Source: a virus. From it: 19,774 nt of DNA. Of the stretch, positions 1 to 18,819 are shown in pieces (the stretch's first letter is position 1; every line of letters begins with the position of its first letter). Where the stretch lies: UHGV virus genome UHGV-0311028; one strand, given 5' to 3'. The position numbers and the translations under genes are program-made. The notes beneath the pieces are model-generated. The model ran no database searches. It worked only from the letters and a program-made list of their open reading frames with translations, and was not told the origin of the DNA.

Positions 1-260
1 ATGCTGTGGCATTGCAGCAGATTAAAGAGCGTGGCGCTTTACCGATGATTGATCGCGGTGATATTCGTCAGGCTATTGATCGTTGCAGCAATATTTGGGC
101 TTCATTGCCCGGTGCTGGCTACGGTCAGTATGAACACAAGATCGATAGTCTGATTGCCAAATTCAAAGAAGCTGGCGGGAGAGAAGTCTTTCAGGCCAAG
201 CTGCTTGCGGTAGGCATCCCACCAACGGGAAAGAAGCTGGTAGCGTCCGGCGGCTGTTGA
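1..260 (+). pseudogene. Endolysin 3' fragment (lambda R-type lytic transglycosylase, approx. codons 91-150), truncated; runs off the window start
   Basis: Plus-strand frame reads ...AVALQQIKERGALPMIDRGDIRQAIDRCSNIWASLPGAGYGQYEHKIDSLIAKFKEAGG up to nt 179, which I recognise from memory as the C-terminal half of lambda R-family endolysin. After nt 179 the frame runs into the reverse complement of the opposing fragment and stops at 260. The first in-window codon at 6-8 is GTG (Val of DAVALQQ), so the gene continues upstream of the window. Confidence 0.7.
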
Positions 261-440
261 TTTGAGTTTGGGGTTTAGCGTGACAAGTTTGCGAGGGTGA
301 TCGGAGTAATCAGTGAAGAGTTCACCACCGACAATAATATCATAACCGTGGTTACGTGTCGGTTGTCGCCCGTTATCCGTTCCTTCTGACCATGCCACCA
401 TATCGAGGAAAGCTTTACGCTGAGGATTAAGATTTTGCAT
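102..440 (-). pseudogene. Endolysin 5' fragment (lambda R-type), codons 1-88 intact (nt 440->177), then out-of-frame read-through to a stop at 102
   Basis: Translation MQNLNPQRKAFLDMVAWSEGTDNGRQPTRNHGYDIIVGGELFTDYSDHPRKLVTLNPKLKSTAAGRYQLLSRWWDAYRKQLGLKDFSP matches the N-terminal 88 residues of lambda R from memory. Similarity ends at nt 177, where the expected KSQDAVALQQ continuation is replaced by ASFFEFGNQ..., the reverse complement of the other fragment. The ATG at 440-438 overlaps the holin stop. Confidence 0.7.
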
Positions 441-732
441 TTTTCACCCCTGTCAGTCGTTCCCAGAAGTACGTCAGTGCAACCGAACCCATCGCACCAC
501 TAATCCCCGCTGTCGCGAGAATCATGTAAATACTGAATCCACTTTCGATGCTGATCAGGCCACCAATAACACCGGTGAATCCTGATACCACTATCTGAGC
601 CAGAGCATTTATCCAACTCCACGTTGCTTTACTCTGCTTCACATCTATCAGGTAGCGGACCAGACCGCCCCAACCTGCGATGATCAGCAAAACGAGCCAG
701 AATGCTCCAGCAAGATTCTCTTTTTCGTGCAT
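427..732 (-). CDS. Putative class I holin (three predicted TM segments); start uncertain (ORF extends to 831)
   Basis: About 100 aa with three hydrophobic stretches (AFWLVLLIIAGWGGLV, WINALAQIVVSGFTGVIGGLI, FSIYMILATAGISGAMGSVALTYFW) and a short charged C-terminus. Sits immediately upstream of and overlapping the endolysin start, downstream of Q. The first ATG at 831 has no SD and directly abuts a terminator hairpin, so the internal ATG at 732-730 (MHEKEN...) is preferred. Confidence 0.55.
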   Translation of the reverse strand: MHEKENLAGAFWLVLLIIAGWGGLVRYLIDVKQSKATWSWINALAQIVVSGFTGVIGGLISIESGFSIYMILATAGISGAMGSVALTYFWERLTGVKNAKS

Positions 733-843
733 ATGAATAGCCGCAGTTTCGCCTCCGACAGAAAATCGGAGCGTGAAATGATATGTTGATTTATTATTAA
801 TTCGAAAATTACATTCTAATTCATCAGGCATTGATGATTTTAT

Positions 844-878
844 AATAATAAAGGCCGTTCGTTACGGCCTTTATTATT
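844..878. terminator. Perfect 15-bp inverted repeat hairpin (AATAATAAAGGCCGT / ACGGCCTTTATTATT, 5-nt loop), bidirectional terminator-like
   Basis: Read directly from the sequence at 844-858 and 864-878. A GC-rich core is flanked by A/T runs on both sides. Lies between the Q-proximal moron and the holin. Confidence 0.55.
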
Positions 879-883
879 GATAT

Positions 884-1219
884 TTATTTTACATCCCAAG
901 GTAGTTCCTCAAGAGAGAAGACTAATTCATTATCAATGATTTCGTATTCTGCATAACCTTCAACCTCTCCTGAGAAGTTATTGTCAACGCATCCTTCATA
1001 ATAGCTATATGGTGCTATAAAGTGAAACCCATATTCATCTATCTCTGTGATTTCAAAATTGTAGTAATCGTAAGAATATCGAATATCATCATCAGAAATA
1101 GAACTAAGTACATAGTTATTAAATTTATCGGAATGCTTAACGATAAGCTCTGACAACGCGTCAAGATTCTCTGGAGAGATATTTCCTAACGGTAATCTGT
1201 ACTCAACGGCATTAATCAT
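884..1219 (-). CDS. Hypothetical acidic protein (moron between Q/late promoter and holin)
   Basis: 111-codon ORF with a strong SD (AAAAAGGAGGTTGT before the ATG). AT-rich relative to neighbours. The product is rich in D/E and aromatic residues (SYDYYNFEITEIDEYGFHFIAPYSYYEG) with no family I recognise. Bracketed by terminator hairpins at 1271-1296 and 844-878. Confidence 0.6.
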   Translation of the reverse strand: MINAVEYRLPLGNISPENLDALSELIVKHSDKFNNYVLSSISDDDIRYSYDYYNFEITEIDEYGFHFIAPYSYYEGCVDNNFSGEVEGYAEYEIIDNELVFSLEELPWDVK

Positions 1220-1270
1220 ACAACCTCCTTTTTAACTGATATGAGGTTATATAATGTGTTTCAGTACAAG

Positions 1271-1296
1271 TAAATAAAAACCCGCTCAACAGCGGG
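1271..1296 (-). terminator. Rho-independent terminator (tR'-like) downstream of the putative late promoter
   Basis: Minus-strand hairpin CCCGCT-GTTG-AGCGGG followed by TTTTTATTTA (plus strand 1271-1296: taaataaaaacccgctcaacagcggg). Confidence 0.6.
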
Positions 1297-1344
1297 TTCG
1301 TGAAAATTATCAACGGCAGACATACAAAGCCCATCGTTGAGAAA

Positions 1345-1373
1345 ATCTTATCCATATTTTTTGAAAAATGCAA
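1345..1373 (-). promoter_or_regulatory. Candidate late promoter (pR'-like) just downstream of Q
   Basis: On the minus strand: TTGCAT, a 17-bp spacer, then TAAGAT. Located between the Q stop (1405) and the tR'-like terminator, which is the lambdoid pR'-qut-tR' arrangement. Assigned by motif and position only. Confidence 0.35.
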
Positions 1374-1404
1374 GCTTCATGTCGCCATCTTCGGCGAAAA
1401 TCAC

Positions 1405-2157
1405 TTATCTCGTCACCTTTCTCAATTGCGTTTCAGCATATGCTTCTTCCTGCCAGCACTTTGTTACTAGTTTATCAATTACGTCTGCATATCCTTTGTA
1501 CCACTGATAATCAGTCAGGTCTGGAACCAGCTTCTGGACATGACGTCGTGCCAGTGTAGTTGGTAAACGGCTAAACCGGTTTCCATTGCAACGCCCACAA
1601 ATCTTATAAACAGGCGTGCCATGAAGCCGGGTCCTTTTTTCATCCAGGACAATACCTTTACCCTTACACCCTCTGCACGCTGTGCTGACTTCTCCCTTAC
1701 CATGACAATGCTGACATAGTTCCTTCACCCACTCTTCCTTGATAACAGATTCCCCGCTTCTGGAGTGTTTCACCACCTCGCGCAATACATTATGAAATCC
1801 AGTACCAGCACAATGCTCACAGCGAGCCTTACTTGCCGCAGACCTGGAATAATCAGCAAAGGCAAAATTCACAAGGTAAGGAATGATCTGTAGCCGGGTT
1901 TCTTCACTCAATTTATTCAATGTCGGGTTATCCAGTGCCATCGCGTAATTGAGCAGACCTTCAATCGCAAACTGAGGATCCTGAACACCAACTTTTGCCA
2001 GGAATAAGGCAAACCCAAGCGGTGCTTTCGACTGCACCATCCCCTGCGCAGCCATCACATCCGTAATCGTTAAACCACCAGAGCCTGTCGCCGGTGCGTC
2101 ATCGCTCAGTTTTGGAGATTTCGGGGAGTAATATTTCGGTAAGGCTTCAAGGTTCAT
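1405..2157 (-). CDS. Late-gene antiterminator Q (Qin/quuQ-like family)
   Basis: 250-aa product with Cys-rich zinc-binding motifs (CEHCAGTG, CQHCHGKGE, CRGCKGKG, CGRCNG). N-terminus MNLEALPKYYSPKSPKLSDDAPATG... matches the Q-like antiterminators of E. coli lambdoid prophages as I recall them. Sits directly upstream of the late promoter/terminator and lysis genes. SD GGAGAA precedes the ATG. Confidence 0.8.
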   Translation of the reverse strand: MNLEALPKYYSPKSPKLSDDAPATGSGGLTITDVMAAQGMVQSKAPLGFALFLAKVGVQDPQFAIEGLLNYAMALDNPTLNKLSEETRLQIIPYLVNFAFADYSRSAASKARCEHCAGTGFHNVLREVVKHSRSGESVIKEEWVKELCQHCHGKGEVSTACRGCKGKGIVLDEKRTRLHGTPVYKICGRCNGNRFSRLPTTLARRHVQKLVPDLTDYQWYKGYADVIDKLVTKCWQEEAYAETQLRKVTR

Positions 2158-2170
2158 GCTCGTTCTCCAC

Positions 2171-3166
2171 TTACGCCAGTACGCCTATTGCCAGCGCACG
2201 ATCGATAAAACGAAATATCAGCTCCAGCTGGGAACCATACTTCTCTTCAAATGCCACGGTATCCGCATGCAGCTCGTCGTGATGCTTTCTGCACAAAGGC
2301 AACACAAAGAGGTCATGCGCTTTTGTACCCATTCCCCCCTGACCGTGGCCTATCAGGTGGTGGGGATCATCAGCAGGCTTTCCACAACATGCACACGGCT
2401 GTGTCTTAACCCAGCGTGTGTACTTTTCATTAACCCAGCGGCGACGTTTTGGGCGTAACATAAAAGACTCCGGCGACTCCGGATCCACTTTCAGCGCCAG
2501 CACCTTTTTCACCTTATCCTGGATGATGCTGGTGGCAGGAACCGAAGGCACAAGGTCACTTTCCCGGGTGACAGACGGCACAACAGGCTTCGGTAATCTC
2601 AGTGCCTTACGGGCTGCACTTTCCGGTAAGGCATCCGCCAGGTCATTACGAATCAGCCACCAGCACAGTTCCGGCATTGTCACAACGTGACTGTCATCAA
2701 AACCGAGATCCCGACGCACAACAGACAACACCCAGCGGGCACAGTTATCCGTTGCCATTGATTCCAGCCGTTCCGTGAACTGATCGCGCAGCTGGTTATC
2801 GCAGTGCCAGCACAGACGGATTGCGCCCGGCGCGTGTCGCATTGTTGTCATATTCTCGCTGTGCCAGTCGGAATGAGGCCACTGGCAGCCTTTTTCACGA
2901 AGTAACCAGCTTTCAAGACATTCCACGCCACCAGCACGACGGATCACTGCCTCATTGCGGAACACGGCCCGAACGTCAGGATCATCCGCCAGCGGTTGTG
3001 ATGCCGCCGGAACAGCACCACTGGCGAAAGATGAATAACGTTCCGGCTCAGGCTCCAGCAGGACACGCCCCTGCATAAACAGGGGCATCAGCTCTGAACC
3101 TGGTCTGAACAATACGATCCCCATACGCGGGGCAATTTCAGGGGTCAGTAGTGCTCTCACGGTCAC
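2171..3166 (-). CDS. DUF968/YdfU-like prophage protein with HNH-like Cys/His motif; start codon uncertain (GTG at 3166)
   Basis: C-terminal CACCGKPADDPHHLIGHGQGGMGTKAHDLFVLPLCRKHHDELH resembles the HNH-type motif of DUF968 proteins found upstream of Q in Qin-type prophages (from memory). Tightly packed between the KilA-N gene and Q. Confidence 0.55.
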   Translation of the reverse strand: MTVRALLTPEIAPRMGIVLFRPGSELMPLFMQGRVLLEPEPERYSSFASGAVPAASQPLADDPDVRAVFRNEAVIRRAGGVECLESWLLREKGCQWPHSDWHSENMTTMRHAPGAIRLCWHCDNQLRDQFTERLESMATDNCARWVLSVVRRDLGFDDSHVVTMPELCWWLIRNDLADALPESAARKALRLPKPVVPSVTRESDLVPSVPATSIIQDKVKKVLALKVDPESPESFMLRPKRRRWVNEKYTRWVKTQPCACCGKPADDPHHLIGHGQGGMGTKAHDLFVLPLCRKHHDELHADTVAFEEKYGSQLELIFRFIDRALAIGVLA

Positions 3167-3167
3167 C

Positions 3168-3965
3168 TCAATGAACGGTATCGAGCAGCTTTAACAGCTC
3201 AGGGAATCGGGATTCGAAGAAATGCGGCTGCGTCTCACGCGGATTTGCGGGACTGGTGATATTCTTGCCGAACATGCAGCCTTTCGCTGTCAGCGACCAG
3301 AATTTTTTGATGTTGTTAATCGCTGTACGGCTGTATCGTTCGCGCTGTTCGACGATCCCCAGCTTCGCCATCTGGTGATATGCCTGATTAGCCGTAAGGC
3401 GGATACCATACTGCTTCAGCAGTGCACTCAGTGACAGCGTGGGGCGGCTTGAGCCATCAGGCGCGTCAGCAGGAGCATCAATGGCATAGCGCGGTGCCAG
3501 ATTCGGTAAGCCAACAGCCTCCTGAAGTTTCTGACAGGCTCCAAGCACTGAAGAGTTAGACAGATTTAACTCCCGGCGCATAAAGTCCAGCAGAATCACA
3601 CCAGCCTGCATCTTGTCAGCAGCCTGTCCGGATAATTTTTCCGGTGCGCTGGTTACCATGTCGAAAGTACGGATCACCTTCAGATGGAATGACGGGCTGA
3701 TCCACATTGCATAGGCATACACCAGTTCTTTGCAGACATACGTCCCCTGGTTATTTCCGCCACGAATAACGTTAACTGGCTCTATATTGACCGAGTTGCA
3801 AATCTGCAACTCGCTTATTAAACGTTCAGTTTGCTCATTGCGGAGCCAGAATGCAGGCTTATGCTTATCCAGAGAACCGGCAGCCCTGTGCAGATCGTTC
3901 AGGCTGTAACGCCCATAAGCATCACGACGAACTTCAATACCATCAATGACCATCAGATTATTCAT
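3168..3965 (-). CDS. KilA-N domain protein (putative antirepressor/Bro-like)
   Basis: N-terminus MNNLMVIDGIEVRRDAYGRYSLNDLHRA...GTYVCKELVYAYAMWISPSFHLKVIRTFD has the KilA-N/Bro-N pattern. Strong SD AGAGGAGAA. Stop lies 1 nt from the next gene. Confidence 0.55.
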   Translation of the reverse strand: MNNLMVIDGIEVRRDAYGRYSLNDLHRAAGSLDKHKPAFWLRNEQTERLISELQICNSVNIEPVNVIRGGNNQGTYVCKELVYAYAMWISPSFHLKVIRTFDMVTSAPEKLSGQAADKMQAGVILLDFMRRELNLSNSSVLGACQKLQEAVGLPNLAPRYAIDAPADAPDGSSRPTLSLSALLKQYGIRLTANQAYHQMAKLGIVEQRERYSRTAINNIKKFWSLTAKGCMFGKNITSPANPRETQPHFFESRFPELLKLLDTVH

Positions 3966-3984
3966 ACTTCGTTTCTCCTCTTAA

Positions 3985-4374
3985 TCAGGCGGCTGCACCC
4001 GCCGTTTTCTCGAACTTACTGATAGTGATCTCGACCTTCCCTTTCGGGATAACCGGTCCCCACTCAACCAGCATTCTTTTCACCTGACTGTCGTCTTCCC
4101 ACACACCCGCGTGGGTCAGGGCGTCAAACAGCGCCTTGTTATAGTTGTCCAGATCGCTGATCCGGTTATCCGGAGGAAACAACACGATCTCCACTGCAGA
4201 AGGTGTCGACATTGGTTTCGGCAGACGACGTAACTGCTCAACTATTGCTGCGCACGCCGCGCTCTGGAATTTTCGCCCCGCCGCGCTTATCAGGCTCTTA
4301 CCTGCAAACGCCCCTTTGTTGGGGTGTCGCCAGTACGTGTTCACGCTGGGCGGAAAAGGCAGGATCAGCTTCAT
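3985..4374 (-). CDS. rusA: RusA-family Holliday junction resolvase
   Basis: 129-aa product MKLILPFPPSVNTYWRH...DLDNYNKALFDALTHAGVWEDDSQV has the conserved RusA pattern (PPS-N-Y motif and acidic catalytic residues). ATGA overlap with the upstream gene. Confidence 0.7.
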   Translation of the reverse strand: MKLILPFPPSVNTYWRHPNKGAFAGKSLISAAGRKFQSAACAAIVEQLRRLPKPMSTPSAVEIVLFPPDNRISDLDNYNKALFDALTHAGVWEDDSQVKRMLVEWGPVIPKGKVEITISKFEKTAGAAA

Positions 4375-4658
4375 GCTTTCAGGCCTCTCTCATGTAACCA
4401 GTGGGTTGCACGCAGCCTTGCGTTTTCCTCACCAGCAAGCAGTGAGCGGATAATCCCGACCGCCTCGCTGTCGTCGTCCTTCACCGCGGTATGAAGCGTT
4501 ATCCCCCGGGCCACGCCACGCTTTATCGTGATGACACCTTTTTTCTCCAGTGCGCGAAGATGCTCCACCGCTGCATTCACTGAACGGTATCCCAGCATGG
4601 TTGCCACCTCCTGATTGGTTGGCGGGAAACCACGTTCTTTCTGATAAGAAATCAGCAT
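4371..4658 (-). CDS. LexA-like winged-HTH DNA-binding protein lacking a peptidase domain; start ATG 4658 preferred over GTG 4667
   Basis: Product ...ISYQKERGFPPTNQEVATMLGYRSVNAAVEHLRALEKKGVITIKRGVARGITL aligns to the LexA N-terminal DNA-binding domain (...[36 protein letters not shown]...) from memory. No S24 domain follows. Confidence 0.5.
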   Translation of the reverse strand: MLISYQKERGFPPTNQEVATMLGYRSVNAAVEHLRALEKKGVITIKRGVARGITLHTAVKDDDSEAVGIIRSLLAGEENARLRATHWLHERGLKA

Positions 4659-4693
4659 ATCCAGCACCTGCTACTGGCATTGAGTTAACGTCG

Positions 4694-5347
4694 TCATGCC
4701 GCCATCTCCCTGACCAGTTTTTCTGCCTGCTGGCGAACCTGCGCCAGAAAGGCCTCACCACATGCCTCAAGTTCATCGCGCCCGATGTAGCTGATTGCCG
4801 CTCCCTTCCAGGTCTTGTCGAAAACAGCAATAGCACCAGCGAAGAAAGCGCCTGTCGGCACCTGCTTCTCGTCTTTCGGGATAAACCAGGCAGGCAGTTC
4901 AAAACCAATACGCCCGCGAATAAAAGCAATATGATCTGCATCTTCCGGCCACCACACTTCGCTGGTGGCAGCTTTGATCAGGAAAACATAGCGACCGCCT
5001 TTATCACGCATGGAACTGGCATGCTTCATTATGTAACGCATGCCAGTGATGTATTGCCCCTCATGCTGACTGGCGCGGCTGTATGGGGGATTACCAAAGG
5101 CAGCACCTTTAAGCTCCGCAAGACGTTCTGACCAGTCATGCGCCAGCGCATTGTCTTCCGCCGTGTAATACGCGGCACATTTGGCGTTATCACCGTCGGT
5201 GAACAGATCCAGAACAAACGGGCCAAACAGGGTGTTAATTCCCCAGAAAATGTTGTCCGGCGTGCGCCACTGATCGCCCACTTCCTTCAGTTCATGGGCT
5301 GGTTTGTTCCGCAGTTCCACCAGCGCCTGGCAATATTTATTACTCAT
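4694..5347 (-). CDS. Phage DNA N6-adenine methyltransferase (Dam-like)
   Basis: Contains the NPPY catalytic motif (AAFGNPPYSRA), typical of phage Dam N6-adenine methyltransferases. ATG at 5347-5345 with SD GTGGGGG, overlapping the upstream stop (TAATG). The ORF-track GTG start at 5380 is less likely. Confidence 0.65.
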   Translation of the reverse strand: MSNKYCQALVELRNKPAHELKEVGDQWRTPDNIFWGINTLFGPFVLDLFTDGDNAKCAAYYTAEDNALAHDWSERLAELKGAAFGNPPYSRASQHEGQYITGMRYIMKHASSMRDKGGRYVFLIKAATSEVWWPEDADHIAFIRGRIGFELPAWFIPKDEKQVPTGAFFAGAIAVFDKTWKGAAISYIGRDELEACGEAFLAQVRQQAEKLVREMAA

Positions 5348-5835
5348 TAAGCCCCCACGTAATTCCCTGACAGATACCACTCTTCACCCGATGCAGCGCG
5401 CTTGCTGCTTTTCCGTAAGCACCGCTCACGACGCGCCAGAAAATTGTTTCGTTCTGGCTGGGAGTGGCTTTCACGGAATGCCGCCATCCACACCGTTGCA
5501 GCACGACGGTATAAGCCCCTGGACTCCAGTTCTTCCGCCTGGCGGGTCAGGCACAAAATCTCCCGCGGGTCGTTAGTGCCGACATAGAAATTGCGCACAG
5601 GTCTGGTTTCACGAACTGGTTGCGGTTCCGCCTCCTGCGCTCTCTCAGTCAGACGCGGGAAATGTCTGCGTGTATCCCCTTCACAACGGTGAGCCACACG
5701 ACCACTCTGACGTAACTTGCTTGCTGACTGCAGAACGCGCTGCCGTGAGTAACCTGCAAAAGCATCCGCAATGTCTCCGGAAGTACACCCCGGATGGGCT
5801 TCAATGTATTTCTGAACTTCATTCAAAAGACTCAT
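5347..5835 (-). CDS. Putative transcriptional regulator (winged-helix N-terminus; PerC/ANR-like C-terminal motif); functional assignment tentative
   Basis: Translationally coupled to the replication initiator (GGGGGTGATCATG). C-terminal YRRAATVWMAAF...ERNNF...RRERC resembles PerC/ANR-type regulators as I recall them. It is not a recognisable helicase loader. Confidence 0.35.
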   Translation of the reverse strand: MSLLNEVQKYIEAHPGCTSGDIADAFAGYSRQRVLQSASKLRQSGRVAHRCEGDTRRHFPRLTERAQEAEPQPVRETRPVRNFYVGTNDPREILCLTRQAEELESRGLYRRAATVWMAAFRESHSQPERNNFLARRERCLRKSSKRAASGEEWYLSGNYVGA

Positions 5836-5837
5836 GA

Positions 5838-6779
5838 TCACCCCCTGAATCCTGCCGGGATCTGGCTGTAGTCCACGTTGTCGTAACTGGCTTTGAAGTA
5901 CGGGTCTTCGCGTTTTTCGGTGTACGTGCTGACGGACGGCGATAAGCGCAGGGAAAGCTCATCCCATTTTTCCCGCAGCTTCGACGGGCTGAGCACGTTA
6001 CGGCACCAGAACGGATCGCGGCTGACGCGGCTGTACATCTCGCAGATTTGTTTGTGAGTACGACCATCCTGCACACACATCAGGCGAATTTCGTTTGCCC
6101 AGGCTGTCCAGTTCGGTTCTTTGGGACGAACCACCTCGCCGTCACATTCGGCGGCTTGCTCGTACAGGGCGATGATTTTTTTCCAGAGCCACTGTGCGCA
6201 GGTCAAATCATCCTGCGTCCCCCACTGGCGCTTTTTAGGGCTGAATACAACCGCATCAGGATGGCGAGTTAAAAAATCCTGTTCAGCCTTCTGCGTGTCC
6301 GGTTGCGAAGCGTCCGGACGAGAAGTTTTTTTATCTGACGGATCATGTTTTGATTTTACTGACGGATCCCCGCCAGATTCTGACGGGTGAAAACCCGCTT
6401 TTTTGACAGATTTCGACGCATCAAATTTTGACGGGTCAGATTTTGATGCGTCAGATTTTGACGGGTCAGAATCTGACAGTTGAGAAAAAGCCGCAGCCTG
6501 AAGCTTCGCAACGTTAAGCTGATAAACATTCGACGCATTGCGGTTACCCTGGCGACGCGCCTTACGCGTTAACCAGCCTTCTGCTTCCAGCCGTGCGATA
6601 GCCGTTCTGACGGTACTCATCCCCGCGCCAATCTGGCGGGCAATGGTTTCAATTGATGGCCAGCACACACCTTCGTCATTACTGAAATCAGCCAGGCGTG
6701 CCATAATTGCCACGCTGGATAATTTCATGCCTGACGCTGCGCAACCATCCCATACATAGCCGGTTAATTTAGTGCTCAT
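5838..6779 (-). CDS. Replication initiator (O-like) with N-terminal winged-HTH; ori iterons embedded in the coding sequence
   Basis: N-terminal HTH (LSSVAIMARLADFSNDEGVCWPSIETIARQIGAGMSTVRTAIARLEAEGWL). The central region encodes the 5-aa periodic peptide DPSKSDASKSDPSKFDASKS from tandem 15-bp DNA repeats. SD AGAGGT before the ATG at 6779. Lies downstream of cro/CII-like genes as in the lambdoid cro-cII-O order. Confidence 0.6.
   Translation of the reverse strand: MSTKLTGYVWDGCAASGMKLSSVAIMARLADFSNDEGVCWPSIETIARQIGAGMSTVRTAIARLEAEGWLTRKARRQGNRNASNVYQLNVAKLQAAAFSQLSDSDPSKSDASKSDPSKFDASKSVKKAGFHPSESGGDPSVKSKHDPSDKKTSRPDASQPDTQKAEQDFLTRHPDAVVFSPKKRQWGTQDDLTCAQWLWKKIIALYEQAAECDGEVVRPKEPNWTAWANEIRLMCVQDGRTHKQICEMYSRVSRDPFWCRNVLSPSKLREKWDELSLRLSPSVSTYTEKREDPYFKASYDNVDYSQIPAGFRG
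6396..6485. repeat. Tandem 15-bp iterons (TTTTGACGGGTCAGA-type) = putative ori; further TCTGACGG motifs at 6335-6390; AT-rich stretch at about 6300-6330
   Basis: Read directly: 6426-6440 TTTTGACGGGTCAGA, 6441-6455 TTTTGATGCGTCAGA, 6456-6470 TTTTGACGGGTCAGA, with degenerate copies on both sides. Each unit contains an imperfect palindrome TGAC-GGG-TCA. Confidence 0.6.
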
Positions 6780-6788
6780 GACCGACCT

Positions 6789-7127
6789 CTATTTCCCTGA
6801 ATTTACGACGAAACTGTTCGAGCGGACTGAAGCATTCATGCTCATAGCCTTCGCGGAGGTAGATAACCCGTTGTGTTTCCGGCTCCCAACGAATGACTCT
6901 GACGGGTACTCCGTAGTGATCTTTGAACCAGCGGTTAACTTGTCGCAAAGGACTGTCTCCTTTTGCCGGTTAAAATCACCCACAGCCCACTCTGCAAAGC
7001 TGTGGGTTACAATTACCCTGCCACCTGGTACATTTACTGCATAGCAATACTCCACCTTCGCTTTTCCACCCGGTACAGGAAGCGCAATCAGTTGCGAGCG
7101 ACGGTAGTGTGTTGTTAAACTGTTCAT
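6789..7127 (-). CDS. Hypothetical protein (between the CII-like gene and the replication initiator)
   Basis: The ATG at 7127-7125 overlaps the stop of the upstream gene (ATGA coupling). Same strand as the whole operon. The competing plus-strand ORF 6772-7044 has no such support. Confidence 0.4.
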
Positions 7128-7693
7128 GCGTTAGTTTCTCCACAACCAGAAGCAATCGACGCCACGACGCCCGGAGCTGCACACTCGCGGGCGTCATTAC
7201 TTTCTGAAATGCAAAAAATTTTGTAGACAAGTGCTGCATGCTCCTGCAGCTTCGAAATTGAGAGATACAGCTCGTCGTTAATTGCTGTCTTCTCATGCGG
7301 TTCCACTACACCGTCTTCGATTGCTGAACGAATCTGTTTTGAATAACTGCCGATCTGTTCAATGACTTCCAGCAGACGCTGGTTAATATCGGCGTTGTCC
7401 ACATCCTCGACGTCAGGAAGAGACACAAAGACGCCATTTGCAGACTGCGCCACAGCATCAGCAATGAAGTGAGTGCCACCAGCACGCTGTAAAACCATTG
7501 CCCATCCCAGCGGGAAAATCTGATCGCCATCTGCACGAAGGCGGTTGAATAAAGCGTTTTCTGTTACATCGAGCCAGTCAGCCGCTTCAGCGTAACCACC
7601 CGGCAACGCCGCGATAGTTTTTCTGACAGCTTTCACGTACCACTCAGGCTGTTTTTCTATTTTCCAGTGATGCTTACCCACGATTAGCCTCAT
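7124..7693 (-). CDS. CII-like phage regulatory protein (CP76/YdaT family), tentative
   Basis: Segment [39 protein letters not shown] resembles the conserved core of phage 186 CII-type (CP76) regulators as recalled. Located immediately downstream of cro. Confidence 0.4.
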
Positions 7694-7724
7694 CGTTCTG
7701 TGGTTAAAAATTGAAAGTGTTCTG

Positions 7725-7925
7725 CTAATCTTTCGGATAGATATCCGGTCTTAAGTCAGATTTCGTAATTGCACCTGACGTGCATTGCTCAAGTTTTTTA
7801 GCCAGCACAAAACTGGCTTTTTTATAGCCATTGAAAACCAGCCGTAAGTAGCCAGGTGTTGAGCCAACTTTTCCGGCCAACTCGCCCTGCTGTTCTTTGG
7901 TTAAAGAGTCCCAATACGCTTTCAT
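7725..7925 (-). CDS. cro: Cro-like HTH repressor
   Basis: 66-aa product MKAYWDSLTKEQQGELAGKVGSTPGYLRLVFNGYKKASFVLAKKLEQCTSGAITKSDLRPDIYPKD with HTH character. Divergent from the CI gene across a 90-bp operator region. SD GGAGGT before the ATG at 7925-7923. The longer ORF to 8228 would run through the operators and the cI start. Confidence 0.6.
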   Translation of the reverse strand: MKAYWDSLTKEQQGELAGKVGSTPGYLRLVFNGYKKASFVLAKKLEQCTSGAITKSDLRPDIYPKD

Positions 7926-7930
7926 ACAAT

Positions 7931-8000
7931 ATGTACCTCCGATGTACATATTACATGATTGAAATGAACCTTCAAGATACTTGTACCTTAACGGTACAAG
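7931..8000. promoter_or_regulatory. Immunity operator/promoter region (oR-like) with two palindromic operator candidates sharing a TGTAC core
   Basis: 7931-7949 ATGTACCTCCGATGTACAT (8 of 9 symmetric positions) and 7980-8000 CTTGTACCTTAACGGTACAAG (9 of 10 symmetric). TTTAAT lies 7 nt before the cI ATG, suggesting a near-leaderless cI transcript as in lambda pRM. Confidence 0.5.
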
Positions 8001-8015
8001 GGTTTTAATTTCGTT

Positions 8016-8690
8016 ATGAAAACAATCCATGACATCCGGCGGTCTAACGCCAGAAAACTGAGAGATGGTGTTGGCGGGAATTCTTCCTTTGCCACTATGA
8101 TTGATCGCGAGCCAACCCAGACCAGCAGGTTTATGGGAGATGGTGCTACTAAAAATATCGGTGACAGCATGGCACGACACATCGAAAAATGTTTCGACCT
8201 GCCTGTCGGATGGCTCGATCAAGAACACCAGACAACGAACATCACAAAAAAACCTGATGTTTCAATCACTAATAAACAAATCACATTAGTCCCTGTCATA
8301 TCATGGGTACAGGCCGGAGCATGGAAAGAAGTTGGATATTCTGAGGTTGATTTGAGCACAGCAGAAACGTATCCCTGCCCTGTCCCCTGTGGGGAAATGA
8401 CTTATATCTTGCGGGTGATAGGTGATTCAATGATTGATGAGTACCGCCCGGGAGACATGATTTTTGTCGATCCTGAAGTACCTGCCTGCCACGGTGACGA
8501 CGTTATTGCATTGATGCACGATACAGGTGAAACCACCTTCAAAAGGTTGATAGAAGATGGGACACAGCGTTATCTCAAAGCGTTAAACCCAAACTGGCCT
8601 GAGCCTTACATTAAGATCAACGGTAATTGCTCTATAATTGGTACAGTGATTTTCTCAGGAAAACCAAGAAGATACAAAATCAAAGCCTAA
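8016..8690 (+). CDS. cI: CI-type prophage repressor with N-terminal HTH and C-terminal S24 (LexA-like) autopeptidase domain
   Basis: C-terminal RVIGDSMIDEYRPGDMIFVD...TFKRLIEDG carries the S24 Ser (GDSM) and Lys (KR) pattern. Divergent from cro. Followed by an intrinsic terminator. Confidence 0.85.
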   Translation: MKTIHDIRRSNARKLRDGVGGNSSFATMIDREPTQTSRFMGDGATKNIGDSMARHIEKCFDLPVGWLDQEHQTTNITKKPDVSITNKQITLVPVISWVQAGAWKEVGYSEVDLSTAETYPCPVPCGEMTYILRVIGDSMIDEYRPGDMIFVDPEVPACHGDDVIALMHDTGETTFKRLIEDGTQRYLKALNPNWPEPYIKINGNCSIIGTVIFSGKPRRYKIKA

Positions 8691-8702
8691 TCAATGTTTA
8701 TG

Positions 8703-8727
8703 AACCTGCTTCGGCAGGTTTTTTTAT
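8703..8727 (+). terminator. Rho-independent terminator after cI
   Basis: AACCTGC-TTCG-GCAGGTT hairpin followed by TTTTTTT. Confidence 0.65.
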
Positions 8728-8729
8728 AC

Positions 8730-8757
8730 TTGACAATGTACCTTTGAGATACATAAT
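8730..8757 (+). promoter_or_regulatory. Candidate rightward promoter (pL-like): TTGACA, 16-bp spacer, CATAAT, with a TGTACC operator-like motif in the spacer
   Basis: Read directly from the sequence. Position is immediately after the cI terminator, and the spacer motif matches the oR half-sites. Confidence 0.35.
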
Positions 8758-9179
8758 GTATCCAAGAGAAACAACAAACAGGCAGGACGTCCACGAAGTA
8801 GCCGCCTGGGGCATATGAAGTCCAAGATGATTCGTTAGCAACAAAACGCCCATAGGACGCTTCGCTCTTTAACAATTTGAATATTTTCAGCGTCAATGAT
8901 CTGTTTAGCTCCCTACAAGTAAATGTAGCGTAGCACCATGATAAATCCTGCTAGTGTTTAGTTAAAAATCGCGCGAGAGCAAGAACGACGTGAGGGCAGG
9001 CAATATTGATAGTGTTATTGCTATTAGTTTATCAAAAATATTTAGACGACCCAGATGAATATTTTTAATACATACTCCCCCTAATTTAACAGGAGTAAAT
9101 GTTGATGAATAACGAGACATCTATACTCAACAATTGTATGATATGAACAATTATATAACATAATGTAGGAAAAATAAAA

Positions 9180-9776
9180 ATGGATTGGCATGACCTTATA
9201 TCAAAGGTAATTATCGGACTTGTTACAGGCTCAATCGCAGCTTACTTAACTGCGCGATATGCACTCGGCCGTTATTATAAAGAAAAATGGTGGGACAAAA
9301 GAATAGATTTGTATACGCAATTAGTTGACTGTGTTTATCTTCTAAAAAACACAGCTGACTATTGGTATAAACATGAGTTACATCACGCTTCACAATTCCC
9401 AACCTACTTTAGTTACAAATCAAAAGAAGAAAATGAAATCCTTAGCAAATCTTTCTCTAATGAGCTTGAAAAACTCAGTAGAATAGGTGAGCTATCTTCA
9501 TTATTCTTAACAGAAGAGTGTGGGGATAAAATCCGTTCATTCATTGAAAATGAAGAAAATCTATTTATACAATGGGAGTTTGATAGTATAGAGTTGATAG
9601 ATGCCCACAAGTCAAGACTTGATAAATTAAAAGTATTACTAGACGATATTATCTCTGAAGCAAAGAGAGAGCTTAAGGTCAATAAAAAACATAACAGCCT
9701 AAAGAATATAAAGTGGTCCATAACTATGCCAGACCAAAAAAATGATGAGCCAATTAATTATTACGACAATCATTAA
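9180..9776 (+). CDS. Hypothetical membrane-anchored protein (AT-rich moron downstream of cI); possible superinfection-exclusion/abortive-infection function
   Basis: 198 aa with one N-terminal hydrophobic helix (VIIGLVTGSIAAYLTARYAL) and a charged, probably helical remainder. SD AGGA 8 nt before the ATG. Has its own terminator at 9787-9808. Strongly AT-rich. Confidence 0.6.
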   Translation: MDWHDLISKVIIGLVTGSIAAYLTARYALGRYYKEKWWDKRIDLYTQLVDCVYLLKNTADYWYKHELHHASQFPTYFSYKSKEENEILSKSFSNELEKLSRIGELSSLFLTEECGDKIRSFIENEENLFIQWEFDSIELIDAHKSRLDKLKVLLDDIISEAKRELKVNKKHNSLKNIKWSITMPDQKNDEPINYYDNH

Positions 9777-9786
9777 AACACTTTAG

Positions 9787-9808
9787 AACCCGCTGGGCGG
9801 GTTTTATT
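9787..9808 (+). terminator. Rho-independent terminator after the cI-proximal moron
   Basis: AACCCGC-TGG-GCGGGTT hairpin followed by TTTTATT. Confidence 0.6.
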
Positions 9809-10198
9809 CAAATATACTTTGCACATCACAAATAAAACTATAACGTCCTTCTTCTTTTCCTAATATCTTATATCTACTTATTTATAAGCGGCTTACAGAT
9901 CTTCAACAGATAAACCTAATGAAGGCGACAATGTTCTGATGAATAGCCACCTTTTTACTCAACTGAAAGCGCGTTCTGTCCCTTGTCATTAAGTGCCAGT
10001 TCGTTAAGTCCAAAACCTCCGGAACGCGCTTTCAATTGAGTGGGGAAAATAACTGGCGATGGCAGCCGCCCGTTGCACTAAGTGCCTCTGGATGGGGCAT
10101 TTACTGAAACGAAACCAAAACTTTTAATCGCCTTATGGCGAGGGATTCGTGCAACCAAAAATCGTGCGGTGCAGCGCACCAATTAAGGAGAACTAACG

Positions 10199-10735
10199 AT
10201 GAGTTTTATCCAGACTCTTACCGGTAAGAAGTTCAATTATATCAACTCCACCATTGACGATATTTATATCGAGGATATCGCCGGTGCGCTTTCAAATATC
10301 TGCCGCTTCGCGGGACACTTGCCGGATTTTTACAGCGTGGCGCAGCATTCCGTTCTGTGCAGTCAACTTGTGGCGCCAGAGTTCGCCTTTGAAGCGTTAA
10401 TGCATGATGCAACAGAAGCGTATTGTCAGGACATCCCCGCGCAACTGAAACGCCTTCTTCCTGACTATAAACGGATGGAAGAAAAAATAGACGCCGTAAT
10501 CCGTGAGAAATACGGGTTACCCCCGGTTATGAGCACGCCCGTGAAATATGCCGATCTCATCATGCTGGCAACCGAACGCCGCGATCTCGGGCTTGATGAT
10601 GGCTCTTTCTGGCCTCTACTGGAAGGTATCCCAGCAACAGAGATGTTCAAAGTTATTCCACTGTCGCCAGGCCATGCCTACGGGATGTTTATGGAACGTT
10701 TTAACGAGTTATCGGAGTTACGCAAATGCGCATGA
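10199..10735 (+). CDS. HD-domain phosphohydrolase (prophage early-left gene)
   Basis: H...HD...D arrangement (AQHSVLCSQL, ALMHDATEAY, DLIMLATERRDLG). SD AAGGAG. First gene after a roughly 400-bp leader. Confidence 0.55.
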   Translation: MSFIQTLTGKKFNYINSTIDDIYIEDIAGALSNICRFAGHLPDFYSVAQHSVLCSQLVAPEFAFEALMHDATEAYCQDIPAQLKRLLPDYKRMEEKIDAVIREKYGLPPVMSTPVKYADLIMLATERRDLGLDDGSFWPLLEGIPATEMFKVIPLSPGHAYGMFMERFNELSELRKCA

Positions 10736-11088
10736 ATGTTTTCGAAATGGAAGGGTTTCTTCGCGGGAAATGTGTACCGCGAGATCTGAAAGTGAATGAA
10801 ACGGATGCTGAATACCTGGTGCGTAAATTCGATGCGCTTGAAGCTAAATGTGCGGCACTGGAAAACAAAGTAATACCAGTGTCAACTGAACTGCCACCAG
10901 CAAATGAAAGTGTTTTGTTATTCGATGCTAACGGAGAAGGCTGGCTAATTGGCTGGCGTTCTCTCTGGTACACCTGGGGACAAAAAGAAACCGGAGACTG
11001 GCAGTGGACATTTCAGGTCGGGGACCTTGAAAACGTCAATATCACTCACTGGGCAGTAATGCCAAAAGCACCGGAGGCTGGAGCATAA
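10726..11088 (+). CDS. Hypothetical protein (possible DUF551-like C-terminus)
   Basis: ORF with SD GGAG, overlapping the upstream stop by 10 nt. W-rich C-terminus (GWLIGWRSLWYTWGQKETGDWQWTF). Confidence 0.45.
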   Translation: MRMNVFEMEGFLRGKCVPRDLKVNETDAEYLVRKFDALEAKCAALENKVIPVSTELPPANESVLLFDANGEGWLIGWRSLWYTWGQKETGDWQWTFQVGDLENVNITHWAVMPKAPEAGA

Positions 11089-11393
11089 TGACCACTTTTA
11101 CCGACAAAGAACTGATTAAAGAAATCAAAGAGCGTATCAGCAGCCTTGACGTGCGAGACGATATTGAGCGCCGTGCTTATGAAATCGCACTCCTATCTCT
11201 GGAAGTAGAGCCAGATGAACGCGAATCCTATGAATTATTTATGGAAAAACGTTTCGGTGGCTTAGTAGATAGTCGGAGAGCAAAAAACGGCGATAACGAA
11301 TACATGGCATGGGATATGACTCTCGGTTGGATCGTCTGGCAACAACGAGCTGGCATTCATTTTTCAACAATATCACAGCAAGAGGTGAAATAA
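11088..11393 (+). CDS. Hypothetical protein
   Basis: TAATG overlap with the upstream gene; SD GGAGG. No recognised motif. Confidence 0.45.
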   Translation: MTTFTDKELIKEIKERISSLDVRDDIERRAYEIALLSLEVEPDERESYELFMEKRFGGLVDSRRAKNGDNEYMAWDMTLGWIVWQQRAGIHFSTISQQEVK

Positions 11394-11743
11394 TGGAACC
11401 ATACAGCCTCACGCTAGATGAGGCCTGTCATTTTCTCAAGATATCCAGACCGACTGCCATTAACTGGATACGCACAGGGCGTCTGCAGGCAACACGCAAA
11501 GATCCCACTAAGAATAAATCTCCTTACCTCACAACACGACAAGCCTGCATTGCGGCGCTTCAGTCTCCGCTGCATACTGTCCAGGTGAGCGCGGGTGATG
11601 GCATAACAGAGGAAAGAAAATGTCACTCTTCCGCAGAGGTGAAATATGGTACGCCAGTTTCACATTGCCGAACGGTAAAAGATTTAAACAGTCTCTTGGA
11701 ACAAAGGACAAAAGGCAGGCGACAGAACTCCATGACAAGCTAA
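11393..11743 (+). CDS. xis: Excisionase (Xis, HTH_17/AlpA-like); 3' end overlaps int and may be shorter than the ORF
   Basis: [37 protein letters not shown] is a typical excisionase/AlpA-type HTH. ATG at 11393 with SD AGAGGTGA and TAATG coupling. Directly upstream of int. Confidence 0.6.
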
Positions 11744-12783
11744 AGGCTGAAGCATGGCGGGTCAGCAAACTTGGTGAAATTCCTGATATAACGTTCGAGG
11801 AAGCGTGTGTCAGGTGGCTTGAAGAGAAAGCACATAAAAAATCACTGGACGATGACAAAAGCCGGATCGGATTCTGGCTTCAACATTTCGCAGGAATGCA
11901 ACTAAGAGACATTACTGAATCAAAAATTTATTCAGCAATGCAGAAAATGACGAACCGGCGTCATGAGGAAAACTGGAAACTCAGGGCAGAAGCATGCAGA
12001 AAAAAAGGGAAACCTGTTCCAGAATACACGCCAAAACCAGCGTCCGTTGCAACGAAGGCTACGCATCTTTCATTTATAAAGGCCCTGCTAAGAGCCGCAG
12101 AGCGTGAATGGAAAATGCTGGATAAGGCACCAATTATTAAAGTGCCTCAACCAAAGAATAAACGGATCCGCTGGCTGGAGCCTCATGAAGCACAAAGGCT
12201 GATTGATGAATGTCCGGAGCCATTAAAGTCTGTTGTTGAATTTGCACTTGCAACAGGCTTAAGACGCTCGAACATCATCAACCTTGAATGGCAACAAATA
12301 GACATGCAGCGCCGGGTGGCATGGATAAACCCGGAAGAGAGTAAATCAAACCGCGCAATTGGCGTTGCGCTGAATGATACTGCATGTCGCGTATTGAAAA
12401 AACAAATCGGGAATCATCACCGTTGGGTATTTGTGTATAAGGAAAGCTGTACCAAACCAGACGGAACGAAAGCGCCAACAGTCAGGAAGATGCGGTATGA
12501 CGCAAACACAGCCTGGAAAGCGGCGCTGAGACGAGCAGGTATTGATGATTTCAGATTTCACGACTTGAGACACACCTGGGCAAGTTGGCTGGTTCAAGCC
12601 GGAGTCCCGTTATCAGTGTTACAGGAAATGGGAGGCTGGGAGTCTATCGAAATGGTTCGTCGATATGCTCACCTCGCACCTAATCACCTTACCGAACACG
12701 CACGGCAAATAGACTCGATTCTGAACCCATCGGTCCCAAATTTGTCCCAGTCAAGAAATAAGGAAGGTACTAATGATGTGTAA
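11620..12783 (+). CDS. int: Tyrosine integrase, P22 Int / DLP12 IntD family
   Basis: 387 aa. N-terminus [34 protein letters not shown] and C-terminal catalytic region [39 protein letters not shown] (R...H-x-x-R...Y) match P22-type integrases from memory. SD AGAGGAAAG. Ends 15 bp from the tRNA-derived att core. Confidence 0.9.
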
Positions 12784-12797
12784 CTTATTGATTTAAA

Positions 12798-12843
12798 TGG
12801 TGCCGATAATAGGAGTCGAACCTACGACCTTCGCATTACGAAT
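12798..12843 (-). other. Attachment-site core: 46 nt identical to the 3' end of a tRNA-Thr(CGU) gene (thrW-type), anticodon loop to CCA; not an intact tRNA
   Basis: The reverse complement reads ATTCGTAATGCGAAGGTCGTAGGTTCGACTCCTATTATCGGCACCA: anticodon CGT, T-arm GGTTCGACTCC, acceptor 3' strand and CCA. The 5' half of the tRNA is absent (the sequence continues tataagaatcc...). Confidence 0.8.
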
Positions 12844-12908
12844 TATAAGAATCCGCTTCTAATTCAAAGCATTACCCCATCAACACTGCGCTCACACGTC
12901 CCACCACA

Positions 12909-13043
12909 TCAAAACATGTAAAGCCTTGCAAGCCATTGTGAGGCCTTATGTGTCTCAGTTTTGTCCCACCTTGTATTACGACTTGCATAGCCAATGAAGA
13001 TCAACGTGACGACAAACGGCGCAGCAGTCTTCTTTTCCTTCAT
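12909..13043 (-). CDS. Possible small ORF (44 aa, hydrophobic core), below the ORF-track cutoff; speculative
   Basis: ATG at 13043-13041 preceded by a purine-rich tract GGGGAAGGGGAAGGGAAAGT. Product MKEKKTAAPFVVTLIFIGYASRNTRWDKTETHKASQWLARLYMF. No homology recognised. Confidence 0.2.
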   Translation of the reverse strand: MKEKKTAAPFVVTLIFIGYASRNTRWDKTETHKASQWLARLYMF

Positions 13044-13233
13044 ACTTTCCCTTCCCCTTCCCCACCATGCATACTTTTCTGCCATAACTAAAGTGAATGC
13101 CTGTTATAAGCAATAAACAGGCATTAGCGCCGCTAGCATATTAGCTACCATTCGACTGCCACACTTAAGATTGATTTCTTAAGTATAACCCGGTTTCTAA
13201 TACTACTTATATATTCAGCTCTGAGATTCATTT

Positions 13234-16200
13234 TTATCTCGTAAAATTAGTTTTATGACTTCCTGTTAGCTGACTGTCTTCATAATAAAATGCCCCACTA
13301 AACTCCTGTCGACCATAATGATGACTTGATGTGAGTGAGCCCCCTATAACATCTTTTTCACCTAATAATGTCCAAACGATTTCAAAACCATTTTCCCTTA
13401 ACATTGTTAAAAATGGTTCTTTTTTAACAAGTAGATACGGCTTTGAAGCATATACAGCTTCAGCTGCAAAGCAAACCATAGTTCCATTTTCATCATTGAA
13501 GCTACCCTCTACTTCCCCATTTTTTAAGCCCATCTTTTCAAAGATTAAGTTGCTAGGCTTCAAAAAATTCAAAGCTTCTATTTTTGATTTGTCGAACTCC
13601 TCTCCCCACAAATAATTAATCGAAGTGACACTAACATCAGCTATCTTAGCTCCAGACTCCCGGTCTGTTACCGAAGTCCAGTCAGAACCAGCATAATAAT
13701 CTGATTTAAAAGACTTAAATGCTTCGGACCAATAGTACTCCCTATTAAATAATTGGTATCTATCAGTACCTTCCGGCATCCACCTGCCCATAAAGTCTTG
13801 AGCTATTGCCCAACATCTAAAATTTTCAAATTCTTCAACTTTAACGATATAACTTCTGATCTGATACCAAACCTCTTTTCGTGGGTGCCCCCAATCATCG
13901 TTTCCAATAATTTTTGGTTCTTTCCATGATGGATAACTTTCTAATACTATCCATTCATCACCATTATCATCTTTAACTTCAATCAAAGCATATGGATTAG
14001 TTATAGTAGTAGAGCTTTGAACCCAGTCTTCATTAGAGCAAGTCCAATCAAACACTTCATCATTAAACCACCACATTTCTTTATTGCTTATTTTTTTCGT
14101 CCCAGTTTCTTTAAGTAAGATAGTGGGATCTATATCTCTTACGTAAGGCTCCCATGGCCCTTGGTATGGGTTTTCCTTTCGGTCGTCACCATAACCTTCA
14201 AAATGAATAAAATTATCGGCTAGCCTTGCCATGTATTCATAATAAGCAATCCATTGGTATTTTTTACCAATCCGTTCTTGGAATTCCTCTCTACGTCCAC
14301 GTCCAGTTCCTATTTGTTGGTCAAAATCACCATGCTTCTCCGGATCCCAACCAAGATCCAGAACACGATTGAATATAAATTGTTGAGCTAGTCGAAGATC
14401 AAAGTGTTTATCAGTTTCCAGCAGATTATTATTATGATCTAGGTATGGCTCTATTTCATTTTCAAACTCACTTAACAGATCGTATGACAATGAATTCTTA
14501 AATAGCTTCTTGCTCGCCTTTATTTCTTCCTGTGTTTTTCTACCGACCACGCTACCCAATTTAATACCTTCACATTTATCATCATAAATGAAAGGATCTG
14601 TGGCATCATATAAATCTTTTTGTTGATCAGTTAGTTTACATTTGAAAGTTTTAAAAACTCGCTTACGGTCAACAGGGGTTTCATTAAACTTGCAACCAGA
14701 CCAATCAGAATGATTATAATTTGTTCCAATAGTATATCGTGAAAAGTCACCACCTTCCATAATCGAGCTCCAGAGTTCCCGATAAGGTTCTTTATCATAA
14801 AGGGACTCTAGTTCCTCTTTTGAAGGAATCTTGTCAGGCCAAATGCTGTTGTAGGGTGGTCTAGTCTTGGATAATTCAATGCTTTCAAGTTCCAATCCAA
14901 GATGATTAGCAAATTCAATAATCTCTCTAGCATAATCTCTAAGTAATATATTTGGATACACATACTCAGAACAAAATACCTTTTGGTAAACAGTTTCGGC
15001 TAAATATTTTAGTTCTTTAATATTATCAGTTCGCAATGTACAACCCAATGCAACTGCAAATATTCTTTCCCAAACGTAAGGATCATTTACACCATAAAAC
15101 TTATCAATTATTTTTCTCAATACAGGAATTCTTGGCTCGAGTAAACTCACTAAAGCCTTGGTTGAGCAATCTCGAAGTTCTCGGTTACTAGAAGTTAAAA
15201 ACCAGCATAAACTAGTTGCAACTAGCTCGATTGACTCATCCGAAACGAAGCTTTTATCTGTTCTGCCCCATGCCCAATCGATTAGATGCCTAAATGCTGA
15301 GTCTTCACTATATTTATATTTAAGTTTTGTAGTCCAACACGAATCTCGATTTCCCAAAGAGTAATCTTTTAGCCAATCATGCAAAAAATTAGCATTAAAG
15401 GGATGGTCAACTAAACCTGAAATAGAGATCACTGCCTCGAGAAAATGATCAAAACTACCTTTAAATTTAAAAACATGTTCATTGATGAAAGGTCTGATTT
15501 TTTCGAAATCAATAGCCTTAATATCTCGCCATATCAAGCTATCAATAAAGGCTTCTAGTAATTTATGATTATTGCTGAACTCCGGCAGAAATTCATAAAG
15601 CTCTTTTCCATACTTTTCTGGCAATTGAATAGAAAGCGCCTCAACTATTCCCGAGTTTGTATAAAAATCACATTCATCATGAAAATATTTTTTCAGACAA
15701 CCATCTGACTTAAATTCATTTTCGATATTTTCAACATCATTTAATAAAAAATTAACAGTTAAATGATCATCAAACCTTTCAAAAGCCACATGAACTACTT
15801 CCTCAGTAGCATTATCATTATTTCTCACTATGCCTTTAGTCAATAATCCTTCGTCAATCAAGGCGCTGAGGAAATTTTTATCTGTAACATAATCATTAAC
15901 TACAGATTGAACCACTGAGTGAGCATCTCTAAGTGAAATACTATTACTACCAATCTCTAATTTGAATTTTATGATTTCGTTGAGAGCATCTTTTACAAGA
16001 GGAAAACTGGGATCGAAATCATATTTTCTTGGCGATGCCAATGATTTATTCACCCCTTCCACTAAAAAGTTAAAAATATTTGAAATCCCATTAAACCCAA
16101 CAGGTACTTTGGTTAAACCATTTTTCTTAATGCCTTCACACAATAACTTAAGAAATAGAGGGTTTTTAAACTCTGGATTAAGATTCGGTGATGAAGGCCT

Positions 16201-17688: not shown

Positions 17689-18210
17689 GGTTAGCTTCTT
17701 CCAATAATTAAAATTTTACAAAGCGTTTATGCCTTACAATATGTATTGTATCTCACCGTAAAACATATTTATATGGTTTTAAACCTATCTGTAAATCTTG
17801 ACACCTTGGCAAGAACCTAATCCTACATTTTAATATCAGTCTATATAATATAGCCAGTGTCATAATAATCGGGCTTATCATAGTTAAGTATTCGCCTCCG
17901 ATATCCCAATGAGATAAGTAAGTCATCAGTGTTATAAATGAAAAGATCACATTTTTCAAAGAGTTATTATGATGGAATATTATTCAAAACGCAATGTAGC
18001 TGAAACGAGTCTGAGTTTAACATCCGCTCCTAGTACATAGTAGTCCCAGGGACAGTGGCGTAAAGTCATAGATGGCCGGTGGGAGGTGGTGGAAATCCTC
18101 TCATGCAAAAAATACATAAAATCGATAACGGCTGGAAATCATTCAATACTCGCACTATCGAAAGTTCACCAGCCAACCGCGCACGATCTTGCATACGACA
18201 TGCTACGGTT

Positions 18211-18765
18211 TCATTTATCTCCGACCGGAAACTTCTTATACAGTGTCGATATACCAACATCATAGATGATCGCCACCTTCTGGCGAGGAACGCCTGATGC
18301 AATTAATCGCCCGGCCTGCGCCCATTGTTCTGGTGTAAGTTTGGGACGACGTCCACCAATTCGTCCCTGTGCGCGAGCAGCTTCCAGTCCAGCTTTTGTT
18401 CGTTCAACAATCAGTTCTCGTTCCATTTCAGCCAAGGCCCCCATCACATGAAAGAAAAAACGCCCCATTGGTGTGCTGGTATCAATTGAATCCGTCAGAC
18501 TACGAAAGTTGATGCCTCGTTCGCGCAACTCCTCCACCAACACGACAAGATGCCGCATACTACGCCCCAGCCGATCCAGCTTCCAGACAACCAGAGTGTC
18601 ACCTGCCGATAATGTCCTGAGCAGTTTTTTCAGTCCCGGCCTTTCGGACTTTGTGCCGCTTATCTTGTCTTCAAAAATCAGCTCGCATCCTGCACAGTTC
18701 AGCGCATTACGTTGTAGATCTGTGTTCTGGTCATTTGTTGATACGCGTACATAGCCAATAAGCAT
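18211..18765 (-). CDS. pin: Serine DNA invertase, Pin/Gin/Hin/Cin family
   Basis: MLIGYVRVSTNDQNTDLQRNALN...DRLGRS... carries the resolvase/invertase catalytic serine motif (YVRVST) and a C-terminal HTH, and matches Pin of e14 from memory. SD GGGGGA before the ATG at 18765-18763. The ORF-track start at 18801 adds 12 unlikely residues. Confidence 0.9.
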   Translation of the reverse strand: MLIGYVRVSTNDQNTDLQRNALNCAGCELIFEDKISGTKSERPGLKKLLRTLSAGDTLVVWKLDRLGRSMRHLVVLVEELRERGINFRSLTDSIDTSTPMGRFFFHVMGALAEMERELIVERTKAGLEAARAQGRIGGRRPKLTPEQWAQAGRLIASGVPRQKVAIIYDVGISTLYKKFPVGDK

Positions 18766-18819
18766 GGTAGATCCCCCTGACAAAAGCAGGAATGATGCCA
18801 TTTGCTCGTTATTTCTGCA

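Follow-up and report, generated by a model that had tools for sequence, protein, structure and literature searches.

The endolysin R of phage lambda, a lytic transglycosylase, is encoded in an S-R-Rz lysis cassette, and lambda R-type endolysins carry the family label GH24/GH104 in annotations. Microhomology inversion joints and joints of the tandem-inversion-duplication type are known from enterobacteria, and were reportedly found by Roth and colleagues in Salmonella under selection for amplification. Strand-switch chimeras between nearby positions are also documented as artefacts of library preparation and long-read sequencing, where fold-back reads run on from one strand into reverse-complemented sequence close by in the same locus, with very few complementary bases at the join (PMC10908179; PMC12870357). 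The stretch of DNA analysed here (19,774 nt, referred to as the window) holds at its left edge a lysis cassette that can be compared with each of these. As in lambda, the start of R overlaps the holin stop, the two R fragments present are close homologues of the lambda gene, and the cassette comes after the antiterminator gene Q, as it does in intact lambdoid relatives. It differs from lambda in its holin, which belongs to the PF16083 family and not to the lambda S family, and above all in R itself, whose halves lie on opposite strands and lack residues 89-92 and 152-158, so that no complete enzyme is encoded. With the chimeric reads the joint between these halves shares both the reverse-complemented same-locus DNA and the minimal complementarity. 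With the enterobacterial joints it shares a strand switch between close sites at minimal homology, but the window gives no sign of duplication or selection, and the far side of any such rearrangement lies outside it.

Anatomy of the lysis cassette and its joint

The features of the left part of the window are as follows.

1..179, plus strand: 3'-half fragment of R (gene nt 275-453, residues 93-151), reversed relative to the rest of the lysis cassette
178..179, either strand: joint with GG microhomology, where BLAST alignments end and start
178..440, minus strand: 5' fragment of R (gene nt 1-263, residues 1-88, including Glu19), its start overlapping the holin stop as in intact cassettes
178..252, minus strand: allele-switch sub-segment of the 5' fragment (R nt 189-263), with the mismatches to the sister prophages
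102..440, minus strand: chimeric 112-aa open reading frame, R residues 1-88 followed by 24 nonsense residues (antisense of the flipped piece)
3..260, plus strand: chimeric open frame, R residues 93-151 and 26 nonsense residues (antisense of the 5' fragment)
427..732, minus strand: intact holin, 101 aa, assigned to Pfam PF16083 (Phage_holin_3_3) in relatives, the protein being 100% identical to the annotated holin of ECONIH4
884-1219, minus strand: intact 111-aa hypothetical protein, 0 amino-acid differences from ECONIH4
1405-2157, minus strand: intact antiterminator Q, 0 amino-acid differences from ECONIH4

The two R fragments were placed by translation and protein comparison, the first (residues 1-88) reading along the minus strand from position 440 to 178 and the second (residues 93-151) along the plus strand from 1 to 179. 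When compared with lambda lysozyme (PDB 1AM7/3D3D), the former aligned with residues 2-88 (E=3e-53) and the latter with residues 93-151 (E=5e-34), a similarity far beyond chance. The minus-strand fragment keeps Glu19, which we take to be the catalytic residue of R, within the motif ...AWSEGT.... The fragments converge tail-to-tail and overlap only in the dinucleotide GG at 178-179, which can be assigned to either of them and thus amounts to 2 nt of microhomology. BLAST alignments against 5,426 complete E. coli genomes broke sharply at the same point, with 178-900 aligning on one strand and 1-179 on the other. The window lacks R gene nt 264-274 and 454-477, and tblastn found no second copy of R in it. 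From the R start the frame follows R for 88 residues only, the C-terminal half being on the opposite strand; a complete R of approximately 158 aa in a single frame was thus not present. These results bear out the initial annotation in so far as it described two convergent, endolysin-derived fragments on opposite strands that cannot be one intact gene, and its coordinates were right within 1-2 nt. The holin at 427-732 was likewise intact as had been claimed, and its neighbouring endolysin frame broken.

The intact holin lies directly upstream of the endolysin start, and the late-operon block further upstream spans 884..2157 on the minus strand. In ECONIH4 the order continues with an intact R, Rz, an HNH gene and the terminase, and Rz follows immediately downstream of R in relatives generally. 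Since the window stops within R, the absence of Rz and terminase from it says nothing.

Occurrence of the joint and position in the sequence

No alignment crossed the joint among the 5,426 complete E. coli genomes, and contig collections of representative genomes, viruses and metagenomes did not contain the exact junction patterns. Three exact look-ups returned no record of the chimeric reading-frame products, and neither read-through tail had a homologue in two protein searches covering 5.8 billion cluster representatives. The homology searches with both read-through frames gave thousands of R proteins, and the odd-length R variants that do exist proved to be frameshifts in the A5 run or unrelated fusions. 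Independent, near-identical assemblies also lack the joint, which, judged from these collections, appears to be private to the window sequence. Among the frameshifted variants, a 106-aa R broken in the A5 run directly after KDFSPKS represents a cluster of 375 members.

A distance of 177-179 nt separates the joint from the left edge of the window, whose length is irregular and whose two ends both fall within multi-copy phage genes. A query with positions 1-900 (holin and R) matched 2,793 genomes at 6,372 places in all (median 2 per genome, maximum 9), and the corresponding right-end query (18100-19774, pinE to tfaE) matched at 11,517 places. The right end was collinear with relatives down to the last base, with no chimeric tail there. 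The features towards this end are as follows.

13234-17688, minus strand: Avs2 (AVAST type 2) anti-phage gene, 1,484 aa, between the attachment core and the pinE invertase
18211-18801: Pin-type DNA invertase, 196 aa (184 aa in most relatives)
near 18818-18843: Pin crossover site

After the invertase come a tail-fibre C-terminal cassette and then tfaE, in which the window ends (region 18211-19774). This end point falls within the Pin-invertible tail-fibre segment, and several other assemblies likewise break there, beside pinE. Since both of its ends lie in multi-copy phage genes, we take the window to be a complete draft contig whose terminal 252 nt, with an allele switch followed by the strand flip, would lie in repeat territory. 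A cluster of 1,160 partial R proteins with a 66-aa representative beginning 'AVALQQ' suggests that E. coli draft contigs often break near the same point of R at which the window starts.

Sister assemblies and allele origin of the R fragments

A rare 313-aa HTH protein encoded in the window led to two sister contigs, one in NCBI assembly GCA_045076085.1 (L022) and one in ENA assembly ERZ27269914 (L021). The rare proteins traced for this purpose also included Avs2, the integrase and KilA-N of the window, and what they led to were sister assemblies, not the contig from which the window comes. Compared with window positions 178-12843, both showed 10 mismatches in 12,666 nt, all of them within 178-252, and were 100.000% identical to positions 253-12843. 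Both contigs encode an intact R of 158 aa, which is followed by Rz. Moreover, a further contig of GCA_045076085.1 (L015) carries the Avs2 region, corresponding to window positions 12797-18688, at 100% identity. The identity of the sister contigs together with the shared Avs2 region indicates that a phage all but identical to this one, in a nearly identical host background, has a normal endolysin gene.

Within the 5' fragment, R nt 1-188 were identical to R of these closest prophages, and the 10 differences, all of which are synonymous, were confined to R nt 189-263. The flipped piece had 16 differences in 179 nt to the sister-prophage R (91% identity) and was 99.4% identical to the intact R alleles of MB30 and of an ENA contig (L020), the latter of which itself shows a natural allele switch within R. 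Both R nt 189-263 and R nt 275-453 matched a different, uncommon group of alleles (E308, MRSN346647, CT29 and MB30). When R nt 189-453 were reconstructed from the two pieces, the best intact alleles were 98.5% identical, and only 28 of the 2,686 matching records reached at least 95%. No intact allele in the complete E. coli genomes was at least 99% identical at the DNA level to both fragments, the best reaching 97.0% over nt 15-453. The protein of the re-ordered fragments was found exactly once in a collection of 15 billion proteins, encoded on an ENA contig whose lysis cassette likewise runs Q-hyp-holin-R-Rz. The sharp allele switch in window positions 178-252 may reflect either mosaic recombination within R or an assembly path switch between R paralogues.

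Because the stretches on either side of the joint share one rare allele family, a single copy of R is the simplest source of both. The strand switch would then have occurred within that copy, joining nt 263 to nt 453, two positions of the same locus approximately 190 nt apart and on opposite strands. The initial annotation had instead proposed that two oppositely oriented cassettes were joined at non-homologous points inside their endolysin genes, an origin with which the shared, rare allele family (28/2,686 records at 95% or above) fits poorly.

Origin of the joint

We infer that the tail-to-tail joint is probably a chimera formed at the end of a contig during assembly or sequencing, and not a structure of the genome, and that it is presumably backed by few or no reads. 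The contig would leave unique prophage DNA and enter the multi-copy endolysin gene R, with its last 179 bases originating in a strand switch inside a single copy of R, either in a molecule or at an assembly step. The sense strand would there end at gene nt 453 and continue as the antisense strand from nt 263, helped by 2 nt of complementarity. This could have come about through a fold-back 3' end or a strand-switching polymerase in library preparation, amplification or long-read sequencing; alternatively, a short repeat piece joined in the wrong orientation would have the same appearance. An artefact is favoured by the position at the edge, by the uniqueness of the joint, by the intact R of the otherwise identical sister prophages, by the lack of decay (the reading frame stays open in either fragment, and intact alleles match the flipped piece at 98.5-99.4%) and by the allele switch within the same 252 nt, which directly follows 12.6 kb of perfect identity to the sisters. 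It is further favoured by the one-copy origin with its local jump, and by the exact reconstructed protein being encoded intact in the same type of cassette. Strand-switch chimeras of this geometry are, moreover, a documented class of artefact, and a tail of 177-179 nt would fit one read of lengths common on current platforms.

Several points speak against an artefact. De Bruijn graph assemblers usually need several reads per junction and prune low-coverage chimeric links. A simple fold-back graph model predicts that the contig would run to R nt 264 and beyond, whereas it in fact stops at nt 275. The published model for short-read artefacts (PDSM) relies on natural inverted repeats, which are at least 8 bp there, whereas the joint in the window shares only 2 nt. 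Finally, lambdoid mosaicism of the ordinary kind could account for the allele switch at nt 189, the ENA contig with a switch inside R being a natural example.

No inverted repeat was found at the R breakpoints, where the overlap is 2 nt only, and this excludes that an assembler graph collapsed at an inverted repeat flanking the joint. The proposal in the initial annotation of an assembly chimera therefore holds as the favoured reading, while the form it was given there, a collapse of prophage copies at an inverted repeat, does not. The R allele of the window does contain an 11-nt perfect inverted repeat, at R nt 201-211 and 439-449 (window 230-240 and 165-175; arms CCAGCTTCTTT / AAAGAAGCTGG), of which approximately 0.03 pairs are expected by chance per 477-nt gene, but it is not at the joint.

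The main alternative to a contig-end artefact is a genuine and very recent microhomology-mediated rearrangement inside a single R gene, which we regard as possible though rather unlikely. It could take the form of an in-place inversion of approximately nt 264-453, with a second joint 10-12 nt to the left of the window that would be expected to read ...TTCATTAACCAC followed, across the breakpoint, by [A/G]AAAAGCCAGGATGCTG, or of a fold-back joint of the tandem-inversion-duplication type that arose when the template was switched at the 2-nt microhomology. Fragments of one allele family, approximately 190 nt apart in R, are what either form would give, and the window starts only 11 nt from the predicted second joint of the in-place inversion. 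A junction kept by an assembler usually has some read support, and the inactivation of lysis genes is a common prophage fate. Spontaneous inversions at 2-nt microhomology, on the other hand, are rare; the joint was unique across all data searched, R is intact in sister prophages that show no difference from the window over 12.6 kb, and the coincidence of contig end, joint and allele switch within 252 nt is left unaccounted for if these arose independently. Were the joint real, the holin would be left without a partner endolysin, as the predicted 112-aa product keeps the presumed catalytic Glu and loses the whole C-terminal half. A more specific version, in which a very recent microhomology inversion in R disarmed lysis while the prophage, otherwise intact and bearing Avs2, still excises or circularises, as the attP-type joint on the same contig would suggest, seems to us unlikely. 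If true, it would be a snapshot of the first step in prophage domestication; equally, a real joint would be one more private inactivating lesion on an ordinary route of lysis loss, and of little biological weight.

If a large chromosomal inversion or deletion had joined two lambdoid prophages whose endolysin genes were cut at different positions, a second holin and Q in opposite orientation would lie to the left of the window. The allele type of R in the sister prophages is indeed not that of the flipped piece or of the 75 nt leading up to the joint, which makes a second R copy in the same genome plausible, and the holin-R query matched E. coli genomes at a median of 2 and a maximum of 9 places. 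Homologous exchange between inverted R copies, however, gives intact hybrid genes and not tail-to-tail fusions, and the model needs two independent illegitimate breakpoints inside 477-bp genes. Since, in addition, the flanks of the joint (nt 189-263 and nt 275-453) share one rare allele family, which fits one copy, and the joint was seen in no other assembly, we consider such an event highly improbable. An even smaller chance, close to negligible, is given to a programmed inversion in which the Pin-type invertase (18211-18801) flipped a segment of R at pseudo-sites. The pinE-type gene and its crossover site are present in the same window, and 2 nt, the overlap at the joint, is also the length of the crossover core used by serine recombinases, but by inspection the surroundings of R nt 262-263 and 452-453 are unlike the 12-2-12 site beside pinE (TTCTCCCAAACC AA CGTTTATGAAAA). 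Such an inversion of R was not found in any other genome among the 5,426 complete E. coli genomes, and the R DNA is not flanked by inverted 26-bp crossover sites; an origin at Pin pseudo-sites was accordingly rejected.

For an artefactual joint, which we favour, the practical consequence is one of caution: where a multi-copy phage gene is split into tail-to-tail fragments less than a read length from the end of a contig, a rearrangement scar should be assumed only with read support. Near-identical sister assemblies can be used for judging such joints.

Attachment site, Avs2 and neighbouring loci

Window positions 12797-12843 correspond to the 47-nt 3' part of the tRNA-Thr(CGT) gene thrW, the attachment core (context 11620-13234). 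In the window, the integrase end is joined to the Avs2 end through this core, and the window contains no complete tRNA. In a sister assembly, by comparison, the integrase adjoins the full thrW beside proA (attL), and the Avs2 end adjoins a partial core beside a P4-like integrase (attR side). A join of integrase, core and Avs2 that lacks a complete tRNA is an attP-type joint, and the window is thus not a simple integrated prophage; this arrangement implies that the contig represents excised circular phage DNA, a tandem lysogen or DNA from phage particles.

The location of Avs2 between the attachment core and pinE makes it cargo at the att-distal end of the lambdoid phage. The exact Avs2 protein was found on only 9 contigs in the collection. 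In two relatives (L032, 8055-10455, and L033, 6428-8828), a P4-like integrase past the attachment core is followed by two genes with reverse-transcriptase domains (PF00078; 398 and 667 aa), and these genes beside the prophage may be a retron or a DRT-type defence island.
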